Assembly (NCBI RefSeq): GCF_006345805.1
Contig: NC_042998.1
Coordinates: 10,974,001 to 11,038,000, forward strand
Direction of reading: 5' to 3'
Length of the DNA: 64,000 nt
Source of the DNA: Octopus sinensis
Lineage: Eukaryota
How positions within the stretch are numbered: position 1 is the stretch's first letter; each line of letters opens with the position of its first letter. Under the pieces are notes generated by a model that saw nothing but the letters and a program-made list of their open reading frames with translations, had not been told where the DNA came from and made no database searches. The translations under genes and the position numbers were made by a program. Positions 53 to 50,900 of the stretch are shown here, piece after piece.

Positions 53-106
53 CCATATCACGTGATTTGGAATTCTGATGCATACCACCTCAATATTCGT
101 CAGTGG
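53..106 (-). ncRNA. Decayed type I hammerhead ribozyme (GAAA mutated to CAAA)
   Basis: Minus strand reads CCA-CTGACGA...TTC-CAAA-TCACGTGA-TA-TGG. Stem I is CCA/TGG and stem III is the palindrome TCACGTGA. Inverted homolog at 814-867. Confidence 0.55.
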
Positions 107-270
107 ATCTTACTAAGATATTGCTTTTTGTGGTTAATGAGCTGTTTTGACTCTTATTTCTAGCAATGCTGGTACTACTTTATACTTTTCTCCCTTTAGT
201 GACTTTTATAAATTTGCCTTTAGGTTTTAAATTGCTGATAAGCCACCTACATTATTTATAGTAAACATGT

Positions 271-700
271 CTTGTTGGCATCCTTTTTGTCTCGGGAGAC
301 AATGGAGTTGCGCATAAAATAGTCTAGTCCGGCTTTTACATTTCATGTCCTGATACATTTCCTGCTGTGGCTGTGTAGTCCTATCTGTTACCTCCTGTGT
401 TGTTTCTGCAGCTTTTTACAGCAGCACTGAAGTGTCCTCTCCAGTTTTGCGCAGGCCTGGGCTAGAGATAAGAAAGTGCCTGGGTAGCCCAATCGTCAGG
501 TTTCCTCTATCGACCTTGCTGACGTAGTCCAAAGGAGTGCTGAGCATTACGTTTGGCATCAGCTTGGTTGCAGGAGCTGCCGGAAGAGTGTCGAGTCGAA
601 CACTAAACCGCCTTCGGGGCTCCACTCTGGATTTCTTTGAAGGTTGTCTCCTTTCCGTAACCCTGGATAGGGGCCCATACCGGTTACTGTCAGCACTACC
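271..700 (-). mobile_element. Non-autonomous bipartite RTE-clade LINE derivative (5'UTR fused to 3' end)
   Basis: Minus strand has an RTE-type 5'UTR (CCAGAGTGGAGCCCCGAAGGCGG...CTCCTGCAACCAAGCTGATGCCAAACGTA...), then the ORF C-terminal remnant IGLHSHSRKC, then the RTE-type 3' end CCATTGTCTCCCGAGACAAAAAGGATGCCAAC. The 5' boundary is approximate. Confidence 0.7.
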
Positions 701-813
701 CTGAAGTAGTGAAGAAGTTCGCTACCCTCTACCGGTCTGAAAAAACACACGCTTTCAACGGTTTTCTTGTAAGTTGACGAGGCGAGTTGAGCTGACCCTA
801 GGCGCAGTAAGAT

Positions 814-867
814 CCACTGACGAGAATCGAGGTGTTATGCAACACAATTTGAAATCACGTGATATAC
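814..867 (+). ncRNA. Type I hammerhead ribozyme with decayed stem I
   Basis: CTGACGA (817-823), stem II GAAT/ATTT, GAAA (851-854), palindromic TCACGTGA, AUA triplet. Stem I pairs poorly in this copy. Confidence 0.55.
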
Positions 868-1074
868 GTATATCTGCTACTTCAGTAAGGAGATTTATTT
901 TACTAGAGCAGGGAACTGTCTCTCTCGTCAACTTACTAAGATAGTGCTTTTTGTGGCTAATGAGTTGTTTTGACTCTTATTTCTAGCAATGGTGGTACAA
1001 CTTTGTATCGTTGCCACTTTAGTGACGTTTATATATTTACCTTTAGGCTTTGAATTAACAAGCCACCTACATTA

Positions 1075-1222
1075 TCTATCTATCTATCTATCTATCTATC
1101 TATCTATCTATCTATCTATCTATCTATCTATCTATCCATCTCTCTCTCTCTCTCTCTCTCTCTCTCTCTTTATATGATATAATATATATATATATATATA
1201 TATATATATATATATATTATAT
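1075..1222. repeat. Compound microsatellite (TATC)n(TC)n(TA)n
   Basis: Directly visible. Confidence 0.95.
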
Positions 1223-1253
1223 AGAAAAAAAGCAACAAGAATGGATTAAAATA

Positions 1254-1334
1254 TCGGTACAATTGTTTCGTACGAGGACGTCTTTAATAGGCTACAAAAA
1301 ATGCAGTAAATATAGATGGCTACTCGTCAGCCGA
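1254..1334 (-). ncRNA. Type I hammerhead ribozyme in a ~345 bp element flanked by (TA)n (1223-1567)
   Basis: Minus strand: TCGG-CTGACGA-GTA..(47 nt)..TAC-GAAA-C-AATT-GTA-CCGA. Stem I is TCGG/CCGA and loop 3 is palindromic. Confidence 0.8.
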
Positions 1335-48084: not shown

Positions 48085-48297
48085 TTCTTCTTCTTCTTCT
48101 TCTTCTTCTTCTTCTTCTTCTTCTTCTTCTTCTTCTTCTTCTTCTTCTTCTTCTTCTTCTTCTTCTCTTCTTCTTCTTCTTCTTCTTCTTCTCCTTCTTC
48201 TTCTTCTTTTTCTTCCTCTTCTTCTTCTCCTTCTCTTCTTCTTCTTCATCTTCTTCTTCTTCTTCTTCTTCTTCTTCTTCTTCTTCTTCTTCTTCCT
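48085..48297. repeat. (TTC)n microsatellite
   Basis: Directly visible. Confidence 0.97.
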
Positions 48298-49147
48298 CTA
48301 ATCTCTATCAATCTTTCTACTGGTTTAGTGGAACACTTTGAAGTGGAATGCTGTGCGATTAGACAGCACCGTTTGCTTTGAATAGCCAGATTGAAAAACA
48401 ACTGACCTAAATTATACGGTTGATCACTTGGTTGTCAAATGGAGTGCAATATGGAATTCTGAGGTTTTTTTCTTTTATCCATAGATACGGCCTGATTTAG
48501 CTTACCTTTTATATAGATAAAAAACGACAAAGGAATATTATCTTTCCCGTTTCTCTCTCCTTATCTTAGTACACACACACACACACACATGCACAGATAC
48601 ACACACACGCGCACAGATACACACACATACACACACGCACAGATACACACACACATGCACACGCATCCACGTATGTGTGGTGTGCGCATATGTCATATTA
48701 GCGCCTGCGTGCTTGTTTCAATATTTATTGTTGTGCACGTACACATGCACCCAGATAGGCACTCGCTCTCGCATATCATATGATATATTATATAGGTAAT
48801 ATATATTATATATATATATATGTATATATATATACATATATATATATATGTGTGTGTGTATGTATGTATATATATATATATATATATATACATATATATA
48901 TATATATACGTATATATATAAATATAAATATGTATATCTATCTATCTATCTATCTATCTATCTATCTATCTATCTATCTATCTATCTATCTATATATATA
49001 TCTATAATATATATATAATATATATATATATATATATATATATATAATAGTTAATCCAAACATGAAAGCACAAAAAAAAAACACAACAACGCGAGGACGT
49101 GGAACAAATATAGTATTATTGGACGCTCAGGAAGGAAGGAAGAAGGG

Positions 49148-49182
49148 GTTCAACGTTTCGAGCGGAGCTCTTCGTCGGAAAC
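49148..49182 (-). ncRNA. Minimal hammerhead variant (core CCGACGAA) in a ~210 bp (TA)n-flanked repeat (49049-49260)
   Basis: Minus strand: GTTT-CCGACGAA-GAGC-TCC-GCTC-GAAA-CGTT-GAAC. Confidence 0.6.
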
Positions 49183-49319
49183 ATAGGAGAAGGAAAGATC
49201 CCGAGAAGGGAAGACAGAGGAAAAAAAATCGCCAGCGGTACACACGCGGTCACATTTTGATATATATATATATATATATAAACTACATACATCTACACAT
49301 ATACAAATGCATAATTACA

Positions 49320-49612
49320 CCGCTTGGCCTAGCAGTTAGAGTTTTGCACGTGAGGTTGCAGTTTCTGTTGCTTGGCTGGGCGATGTGTTGTGTTCTTCAG
49401 CTAAACATTACCTGTCGCGTTGCTCTGCGATCACTTCGATTTCTAAGGTGTTGTACCGTTCCCCGGTACAGTCAATGTAGATGTAATGGTAAGGAGTAAG
49501 CTAGTGTGAAGCATAAACATCTGACTATTATAGACAAGCCTCCATCTGCAAGTTGTTCAAAGAGATATTGCTGAGGTCTCCTCTATCGTCTGACAGGAGA
49601 GTCAACAACAAC
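49320..49612 (+). mobile_element. Degenerate tRNA-derived SINE with (CAA)n tail
   Basis: TGGCCTAGCAGTTAG head; tail CGTCTGACAGGAGAGTCAACAACAAC. Confidence 0.55.
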
Positions 49613-49717
49613 ATACACAGACACGCAAATACATACACACAGACTCACAATATATGTGGTGTGTATATATATATATATATATTATATATATATATATATA
49701 TATATATATATATATAT

Positions 49718-50545
49718 ATTAATCAATATAGGGTGGCAAAAAAAATTTTGTAGAACTTTTTTGCCACCAGCGGCCTAGTGGGAAAAAATTAAATAGTCAT
49801 AGACCATTTTAAGTTCAACATCAAACAATCAAGGAACGGCCATAATAGGCCATTCACCCACTAGAAATAACGCCAAAGCTTCAACCGCAAATAAAAGTCA
49901 ATTCCGTAAACAGGAGAAAATTTAAAAAACATTACAGGGTAAATGTTTTTAAATTTTCTCCTGTTTACGGAATTGACTTTATTTGCGGTTGAAGGTTTGA
50001 AGCTTTGGCTGTTATTTCTAGTGGGTGAATGGCCTATTATGGCGTTCCTTGATTGTTGATGTTGAACTTAAAAATGGTCTATGACTATTAATTTTTTCCC
50101 ACTAGGCCGCTGGTGGCAAAAAAATTCTACAAAAGTTTTTTGCCACCCTATATTGATTAATTATGAATTTTCTGGTAATTCGTAATGGAATCGACGGCTT
50201 ATATTTATTTGCTGCCGATAAATTTGGCGCGAGTGCGATGATTTGAAAATTTTAGGTCAGATATTACCTGGCAGGGTCGGAAATGCCTCGTGAAAAAATC
50301 TGTTCCGACTTGTGGCTATTTCTTACTGAAGAATCTGAGGGGCTATGGAAGATTGGCTTGATTTAATTTAATCAGTTAGTTTACCATTAAACACGCAGAT
50401 GAAACGGGTGCATCGTATAAGAAATTACAGGGTAAATGTTTTTTAATTTTCTCTGTTTACGGAATTGACTTGTATTTGCGGTTTTGAAGCTTTGGTGTTA
50501 TTTCTAGTGGGTGAATGGCCTATTATGGCCGTCCTTGATTGTTGA
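49718..50545 (+). mobile_element. 493 bp HHR-bearing monomer, partial tandem with an inverted 5' portion
   Basis: Inverted arms at ~49718-49933 and 49942-50160. ATTACAGGGTAAATG at 49931 and 50424. HHR at 50318-50425. (TA)n on both sides. Homologous to 32831-33371. Confidence 0.85.
50318..50425 (+). ncRNA. Type I hammerhead ribozyme, canonical core
   Basis: ATTTCTTA-CTGAAGA-ATCTG..(58 nt)..CAGAT-GAAA-CGGGTGCATC-GTA-TAAGAAAT. Stem I is 8 bp and stem II is 5 bp. Confidence 0.88.
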
Positions 50546-50694
50546 TATATATATATATATATATATATATATATATATATAGATAAACTTGGAAAGGGAT
50601 GCGTGGCATTCAATCATATAATATAAGTAAATATATATATCTATATATATATATATATATGTATATATATATATATATATATGTGTATATATAT

Positions 50695-50900
50695 AACGGG
50701 AAGCTTTATGAAAATAAACAAAAGACGAAGGCAGGTGGAGTACAAACAAACAATTGTATTAGTATGGCGCTCAGGAATATAAATAAAACAAGTCTTTTAC
50801 GTTTCGAGCCTACGCTCTTCAACAAAAAGATACAGAGAAAAGAAACACAGAGAGAAACAAGGAGAGAAAAAAATGCGTGCAGAAGCTAGCGATTCAACAT
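50695..50900 (-). repeat. Copy of the 18205-18405 family with a minimal HHR variant at 50794-50830
   Basis: Minus strand: TCTTTTTGTTGAAGAGCGTAGGCTCGAAACGTAAAAGAC. Confidence 0.8.

Follow-up and report, generated by a model that had tools for sequence, protein, structure and literature searches.

Predicted hammerhead ribozymes in insertions of Penelope-like retroelements and in small non-coding units across 64 kb of the Octopus sinensis genome

Hammerhead ribozymes had been proposed, in an earlier reading of the sequence (the original prediction), at 15 places in a 64,000-nt stretch of the Octopus sinensis genome (assembly GCF_006345805.1, contig NC_042998.1, positions 10,974,001 to 11,038,000; here called the window). 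Our follow-up leads us to conclude, with a probability of roughly 0.7, that the window holds insertions of Penelope-like retroelements (PLEs) together with small non-coding derivatives, each with a hammerhead predicted to cut RNA as a dimer. About half of the families are stubs of PLE pseudo-long terminal repeats (pLTRs) and half are retrozymes. The system itself is known, because PLE pLTR hammerheads and non-LTR retrozymes have both been published. What appears new here is that G3-C8 and U6 cores occur in very many copies and that a long interspersed nuclear element (LINE) targets a retrozyme.

The type I layout (stem I, core, stem II, GAAA, self-complementary stem III, UH, stem I) could be read at all 15 predicted sites. 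A strict descriptor matched the window 4 times, compared with a mean of 0.04 in 100 block dinucleotide shuffles, a palindrome descriptor matched 5 times, compared with 0.017 in 60 shuffles, and a variant-tolerant descriptor matched 8 times, compared with 0.12 in 100 shuffles. Because the shuffles give 0.02 to 0.12 matches against 4 to 8 (5 for the palindrome descriptor), chance is excluded as the source of the set. One of the 4 strict matches (56992-57089) is weak and was left out of the element tally; like the descriptor matches at 61905-61980 and 31515-31609, it has weak, G-U-rich stems and was not counted. The Rfam check named in the original prediction did not recover the motif: the Rfam hammerhead models gave 0 matches at the gathering threshold and no hammerhead row for the hammerheads of the families, and a scan of the whole window had no hammerhead among the 150 rows listed of 313, in which microsatellite matches dominate.

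Self-BLAST and flank comparison sorted the sites into 11 families, rather than the predicted 10 or so. By the start of the hammerhead, these are F1 (53 and 814), F2 (1254), F3 (16273), F4 (18270 and 50794), F5 (19749, 20224, and 20778), F6 (22223), F7a (33066), F7b (50318), F8 (39913), F9 (45995), and F10 (49148). Stems I and II pair over 3 to 8 bp across families. Three window copies have decayed relative to their own families, namely, 53-106 (GAAA to CAAA), 814-867 (3' strand of stem I lost), and 50794-50830 (C3 changed); in addition, 3 nt of stem II are missing from the copy at 1254, and an A.C mismatch closes stem I at 16273. As predicted, stem III is palindromic in all 11 families and cannot close alone, with duplex energies of -0.2 to -17.5 kcal/mol versus 0 to -0.2 kcal/mol for the hairpin. 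Long loops 2 are found in F2, F3, F7, and F8.

The standard core (CUGANGA ... GAAA ... UH) is the majority form in F1, F2, F3, F5, F7a, F7b, F8, and F9, and three families have nonstandard cores, which the original prediction did not name: G3-C8 at 22223, U6 at 18270 and 50794, and C4 at 49148. Among the copies compared (7 to 61 per family, biased toward the best BLAST matches), the core is kept in 24/27 for F2, 30/34 for F3, 59/59 for F5, 24/28 for F7a, 7/7 for F7b, 28/28 for F8, 19/21 for F9, and 13/22 for F1, with G3-C8 in 45/53 for F6 and U6 in 52/61 for F4. The stems covary between relatives: F4 and F10 differ in stem I (C-G versus G-C), F7a and F7b differ in all three stems, and stem III of F2 reads CAATTG or CGATCG.

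Families F2, F3, F4, F6, and F10, with 6 window sites, are 5'-truncated pLTR ends of 5- to 8-kb PLEs, whose reverse transcriptase (RT) and GIY-YIG genes lie upstream on the same strand at other loci (L numbers). Three RT types stand behind these five families. For F4, a PLE gene is found on the same strand at L143/L142, L267, L059, and L222, with the order pLTR-open reading frame (ORF)-pLTR in L143/L142 and L267; a full pLTR-gene-pLTR element with frameshifted RT and GIY-YIG (G000:C2:10956001-10966600, L143/L142) lies 8 to 18 kb upstream of the window. The same order is seen for F10 in L133. Walking upstream from F6 led to another RT type, the second, whose gene also encodes a cysteine linker and GIY-YIG; it is present at about 15 loci, several of them overlapping or near-identical (L312, L318, L320-324, L326, L331, L335, L337, L347, and L349-352), and an HTH_animal lead (Atlas) was recorded for 30 to 90% of members of the F6-type PLE. 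A third RT type lies upstream of F2 in L141 and L399. F3 lies behind a 49%-identical decayed endonuclease (GIY-YIG piece), across a 2.6-kb untranslated region (UTR), in L397, and it has a same-strand PLE gene also in L360 and L371. RT, a cysteine linker, and GIY-YIG at the C terminus are joined in one gene in L142, L133, L350, and L141, each broken by stops or frameshifts; GIY-YIG (PF01541) scores E values of 3e-4 to 3e-5, and Pfam barely detects the PLE RT. In the window, queries of the three PLE types found no PLE RT or GIY-YIG piece, in agreement with the original prediction. Just 5' of the F6 hammerhead in L028, L035, L281, and L301 lies a sequence (CTAAC ... TTTCTCAG) similar to a branch point plus 3' splice site. 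The start of many short F6 and F8 copies falls within 10 to 65 nt of the hammerhead, and a reading frame that crosses the F6 hammerhead and its tail runs for about 68 codons without a stop.

The 8 window sites of F1, F5, F7a, F7b, and F9 belong to ORF-less, circularly permuted units of 355 to 488 bp, each with a type I hammerhead (F5, 481 bp; F7a, 459 bp; F7b, 488 bp; F1, 360 bp; F9, 355 bp). F5 forms arrays of up to 13 to 14 units between (TA)n, with neither an ORF nor a PLE gene, and almost all same-strand spacings among the matches listed (of 1,402 exact cores) are about 480 bp or multiples thereof. F7a and F7b also form arrays of 459 and 488 bp, and in F1 and F9 the upstream sequence wraps round to the family's own 3' end. 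When circular monomers were folded and compared with shuffles, the z scores were -6.5 for F5, -3.6 for F7a, -4.8 for F7b, and -4.3 for F9, and five controls gave +1.6 to -0.9. The predicted picture of 200- to 500-bp non-coding units mobilized in trans fits these five families and not the five that end PLEs. The original prediction had also said that novelty would go if all families were pLTR fragments of autonomous PLEs; this is the case for 5 of the 11.

Ten of the 11 families fall into these two groups. For F8, the eleventh, no parent element was found, and most copies start 25 to 65 nt before the hammerhead. An apparent F8 period of 467 bp, with a z score of -22.7, was rejected, as locus L356 is a duplicated inverted insertion. 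Likewise, a PLE RT behind an F7a trimer in L355 was rejected as an independent insertion separated from it by (TA)n, and PLE pieces near F5 (L137), F9 (L131), and F3 (L363) were rejected as unrelated neighbors by strand, distance, or intervening ends.

F5 is young (97% identity) and is a ready candidate for circular RNA. A search for expression listed no run recorded as RNA. Contigs of four putative-RNA runs cover parts of F5, which speaks neither for nor against expression, and a joint that goes back 479 fits circles and tandem DNA alike. At 19681-19755 of the window, 8 positions read C instead of T (A>G when taken on the hammerhead strand) in two of the putative-RNA runs (X1 and X5); four of these changes are common to two studies, and none of the 8 is seen in 32 distinct genomic F5 copies. 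These changes hint faintly at A-to-I editing; a divergent copy or another species would be the alternative.

Across the 2.72-Gb assembly, nine families were searched as DNA, with the 40 best candidates scored for each, and F7b and F10 copies were drawn only from flanks and spaced samples. Exact matches give lower bounds of at least 13,792 copies for F4, 6,375 for F6 with G3-C8, 1,402 cores for F5, 234 for F8, and 231 for F9, with 0 for the reversed-pattern controls of F4, F5, and F6. A sample of 600 kb was taken from the 19 largest contigs as 60 stretches of 10 kb at even spacing; in it, the variant-tolerant descriptor found 18 matches in 13 stretches (shuffles, 0 to 1), compared with 8 in the 64-kb window; copies of the 11 families numbered 21 in this sample and 16 in the window. 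The genome would thus hold roughly 30 hammerheads per Mb, or some 80,000 in total, and the window is about 4 times denser, with a bootstrap P value of 0.013 that is inflated because the descriptor was written and tuned on the window. The predicted unusual density is borne out only moderately. As for unusual diversity, many families per genome have already been published for coral (PMC7229834) and Xenopus (PMC4209133).

All 11 families are dispersed repeats with ragged 5' ends and fixed 3' ends 25 to 230 nt behind the hammerhead, mostly two 3' ends per family, with and without a tail. Paired copies are arranged 5' to 5' as inverted arms. (TA)5 lies within 300 nt 3' of 38 to 96% of copies per family, compared with 330 of 1,980 background bins (17%), which upholds the predicted location mostly in (TA)n; in the window, two copies (22223 and 45995) lie outside it. 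This combination of ends, inversions, and targets is the signature of PLEs. Further hammerhead families outside the window were noticed at L247, L251, L270, and L273; L251 and L270 lie behind PLE genes, and L273 is a third F7-like subfamily with fully changed stems.

C3-G8 is a tertiary pair of the hammerhead core. In F6, the core reads GUGAACA followed by an extra G, a 5-bp stem II, GAAA, AAUAUU, U, and a 7-bp stem I; both stems are present in the minimum free energy (MFE) fold (z score, -2.9). With positions 3 and 8 left free as C or G, the F6 pattern matches the genome 6,896 times (control, 0), 6,375 of them with G3-C8, and the first 100 matches listed comprise 85 G-C, 10 C-G, 3 G-G, and 2 C-C. 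The C3-G8 copies form a sister family behind a related PLE gene (35 to 45% identity; L308 and L346; gene in 2 of 9 loci read), and stem II covaries between the sisters at one pair. The tertiary pair would have been swapped in the ancestor of a successful family with the fold kept. In F4, the largest family, A6 is replaced by U: position 6 is U in 99 of the first 100 matches listed and never A among them, and position 7 takes all four bases. U6 would likely give a weak or protein-assisted ribozyme. C4 is found in 9 of 17 F10 copies, and U.U at 10.1-11.1 is found in F3 and F5.

The published natural 3-8 covariation is U3-A8 (PMC3088659; PMC4209133), and an engineered C3G/G8C change partly rescues the hammerhead of the Anolis PLE PAc in vitro (PMC11167929). 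Candidate U3-A8 hammerheads were noticed in the spaced sample at L231:6579-6619, 1.9 kb behind a PLE gene, and at L236:8430-8477, which may bring the number of 3-8 pairs used in the genome to three. For natural G3-C8, literature searches gave only engineered uses, within a scope in which Lünse 2017 and the supplements and figures of PMC4209133, PMC3088659, and the retrozyme preprint may still hold it. If RNA with the G3-C8 core does cut itself, it would represent a new variant among natural ribozymes.

A 5.3-kb L1/Tx1-like LINE with zinc knuckle, AP endonuclease, RT, and zf-RVT domains lies within F5 arrays at L135:3452-8714 and L138:7203-9999. The two copies are 99% identical and occupy the same position of the F5 unit, some 60 nt ahead of the hammerhead and on its strand, with an apparent duplication of 36 to 38 nt in L135. 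Of 23 exact LINE 3' ends genome-wide, 15 were read and all 15 join this fixed site; they are spread over 10 contigs and include four types of spacer and two tandem pairs. Because F5 makes up only about 0.03% of the genome, this points to site-specific insertion and less to the spread of one composite. Target-specific LINEs of the L1/Tx1 clade have an ORF1 zinc knuckle, AP endonuclease, RT, and zf-RVT, insert at one site of a multicopy sequence, and re-insert in tandem. The octopus LINE is like them in domains, single-site insertion, and tandem re-insertion, and its target is a hammerhead retrozyme unit, for which a literature search found no other case. As a speculation, the array ribozymes would free LINE RNA from a read-through transcript. 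The LINE was rejected as the mobilizer of F5, whose ends are of the PLE type and which has 1,402 cores against 15 junctions.

Taken together, these data allow a bolder account that we regard as doubtful: a PLE family may have fixed a G3-C8 core, of which just an engineered rescue in the laboratory has been known so far, and carried it as an active ribozyme to over 6,000 places, a U6 core may have spread to 14,000, and a LINE may have evolved to insert in a hammerhead retrozyme, with the array ribozymes cutting out its RNA. If true, the genome would be a natural mutagenesis series on what PLE hammerheads are for. Why PLEs retain hammerheads is a standing question (PMC8557442; PMC11167929), and sister families, abundant here and distinguished by one core feature each, permit a side-by-side comparison. 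The compensated 3-8 swap argues for selection on an active fold, and the fixed U6 argues for relaxed or altered chemistry.

The copy ends and work on PAc (PMC11167929) suggest how the insertions might arise. The PLE protein would nick (TA)n and start copying the RNA from two internal positions that lie behind the hammerhead; its RT would often stop early or switch strand, leaving short ends like those in the window. The template would be uncut or re-ligated, because every copy spans the cut site. In the small units, read-through transcripts would pair two palindromic stems III and be cut into monomers; these would be ligated to circles, around which a PLE RT could copy to yield 1.5- to 14-mers. 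We infer mobilization in trans from the ends alone, because no PLE partner was found among the sampled copies of F1, F5, F7a, F7b, F8, or F9.

That negative result is one of several points that weigh against a dimer-cutting, PLE-mobilized system. For most single hammerheads, the MFE structure is not the hammerhead fold (z score better than -2 in only 4 of 13), the F1 circular monomer is without structure (z score, +0.5), and F3 is linked to PLEs through a decayed endonuclease piece. In F6, the 3-8 swap is one historical event with no repeated covariation, and stem I of the C3-G8 sister is imperfect beside the core. Published activities are low: only 1 of 9 Xenopus retrozyme dimers was cleaved in vitro (bioRxiv 2026.07.22.740005), minimal PLE hammerheads cleave poorly (PMC4209133), and PAc inserts independently of cleavage, with no RNA ends seen at its cleavage site (PMC11167929). 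The same low activity and weak single folds would suit an explanation in which the elements are as described but the hammerheads are mostly non-cutting relics or protein-binding folds and the small arrays are satellites grown by unequal crossing-over without RNA circles. Also in its favor, the largest family, F4, lacks A6 and half of F10 lacks U4, and Naiads spread without hammerheads (PMC8557442). We nevertheless consider this explanation unlikely, since the stems and the 3-8 pair are compensated across families, the circular monomers are structured, and retrotransposition of multimers accounts better than local expansion for short arrays that are dispersed over many contigs and have inverted arms and fresh (TA)n ends.

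It is more improbable still that all 11 families are merely pLTR stubs of autonomous PLEs, with no separate retrozymes. Such stubs account for 5 of the 11, partial pLTR tandems are normal in PLEs, and at 7 to 61 sampled copies per family rare full elements could be missed; however, F5 forms ORF-less arrays of 13 to 14 units, no same-strand spacing of 3 to 5 kb occurs among the first 100 F5 matches listed, and the upstream sequences of F1 and F9 wrap to their own 3' ends. A chance origin, with a short motif recurring in DNA rich in AT and repeats, would explain the short stems and the silence of Rfam, but this idea is scarcely credible given the shuffles, the reversed-pattern controls, and the constant place of the motif at PLE 3' ends.

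The PLE hammerheads read here, predicted to cut as dimers, resemble the minimal PLE hammerheads of Cervera and de la Pena (2014; PMC4209133) in the CUGANGA(H)/GAAA/UH core, the extra nucleotide between 9 and 10.1, and the palindromic stem III, as well as in lying in pLTRs, in many families per genome, mostly as single truncated copies with inverted pairs 100 to 700 bp apart. In contrast, G3-C8, U6, and loops 2 of 30 to 60 nt were not found in the available part of that paper, whose alignment there includes no cephalopod. Like metazoan non-LTR retrozymes (PMC7229834; bioRxiv 10.64898/2026.07.22.740005), the small units are ORF-less tandems of low GC with a type I hammerhead each, and they share self-paired monomers, PLE co-occurrence, and a proposed PLE origin. 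Their length is 355 to 488 bp versus 170 to 400 nt (PMC7229834) and 51 to 972 bp (bioRxiv 10.64898/2026.07.22.740005), and they differ in having minimal PLE-type hammerheads, with PLE-type tails and inversions seen directly; they are known here from DNA alone. The Poseidon element PAc of Anolis (PMC11167929) likewise has two RT start sites that yield tailed and untailed ends, AT-rich targets, and a pLTR hammerhead. The RT types differ, however, and G3-C8 is natural and fixed in octopus, whose elements are known as sequences, whereas C3G/G8C was engineered in PAc. The natural core variants of Perreault et al. (2011; PMC3088659) include the U10.1-U11.1 mismatch (F3 and F5), U4C (F10), a change at A6, and 3-8 covariation. 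The rare variants in the accessible text are U3-A8 and A6C, and G3-C8 and A6U are not named there, whereas the octopus forms are fixed in thousands of copies. A Hydra example of U.U at 10.1-11.1 exists.

Coral has 16 families, and published hammerhead counts are 6,000 for coral and 120,000 for axolotl (PMC7229834) and 9,000 for Xenopus (PMC4209133). An octopus repeat annotation, in its available part, lists 31 recently active PLE families and does not mention ribozymes (PMC13282606), and the giant squid annotation has 235 Rfam hammerheads (PMC6962438). Literature searches found no cephalopod study of such motifs. Cephalopod counts are likely far too low, because standard descriptors and Rfam miss these hammerheads.

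Table 1. Hammerhead-bearing insertions and associated features of the window (positions in the window)
Feature	Position	Strand	Remarks
F1 hammerhead, decayed (G12 to C)	53..106	-	part of 357-360-bp ORF-less unit; preceding copy just upstream of window
F1 hammerhead, inverted arm	814..867	+	intact core; decay in the 3' strand of stem I; stem III AUCACGUGAU
F2 truncated pLTR end flanked on both sides by (TA)n	1225..1567	-	hammerhead 1254-1334, stem III ACAAUUGU; PLE gene upstream of F2 in L141, L399
F3 truncated 3' UTR/pLTR	16037..16802	-	hammerhead 16273-16359; U.U at 10.1-11.1; stem III ACGAUCGU
F4 pLTR end	18205..18403	+	hammerhead 18270-18305; U6 core; extra A after position 9
F5 retrozyme array	19596..21094	.	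two minus-strand 481-bp-type units and inverted arm; (TA)n both sides
F5 hammerheads	19748-19795, 20223-20270, 20777-20824	-, -, +	
Empty LINE target site in F5 unit	20323..20333	-	L1/Tx1-like LINE occupies equivalent site elsewhere in genome
F6 pLTR end with inverted, tailed arm	22141..22430	.	hammerhead 22222-22272 (-)
F6 hammerhead	22222-22272	-	G3-C8 core, extra G after position 9, 7-bp stem I, 5-bp stem II, stem III AAUAUU
F6 target duplication, 10-14 bp, left copy	22131..22144	+	right copy 22432-22445
F7a partial tandem (459-470-bp unit)	32831..33370	+	hammerhead 33065-33154; long loop 2; family stem III ACUAUGCAUAGU
F8 short inverted insertion	39776..40222	.	hammerhead 39913-39976 (-) with 3-bp stem I; search for a parent element negative
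Second F6 insertion	41406..41593	.	hammerhead 5' half missing; absent from the original prediction
F9 1.5-mer of 355-bp unit	45665..46206	+	hammerhead 45995-46039; C.A at 10.1-11.1
F10 pLTR end	49047..49235	-	hammerhead 49148-49182; C4 core; extra A; pLTR-ORF-pLTR in L133
F7b inverted and direct unit (487-488 bp)	49720..50546	.	hammerhead 50318-50425 (+); 8-bp stem I; long loop 2
Second F4 pLTR end	50696..50890	-	hammerhead 50794-50830 decayed (C3 to U)

The window is rich in (TA)n and contains other repeats. Short 3' ends without a hammerhead were seen for F8 at 4126-4166 and for F4 at 15938-15980. The F6 copy at 22141 lies, we presume from a motif, within another mariner end. LINE RT remnants and one mariner transposase remnant were noted at 5754-7383 (-), 37470-38300 (+), 46855-47382 (+), and 58608-59408 (+). 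Near-perfect, MITE-like inverted repeats of 150 to 200 bp are found at 30019-30220, between (TA)n, and at 50929-51082. Tandem SINE-like units of 183 to 184 bp, which we take to be octopus-type SINEs, occupy 9629-10000 and 40613-41221.

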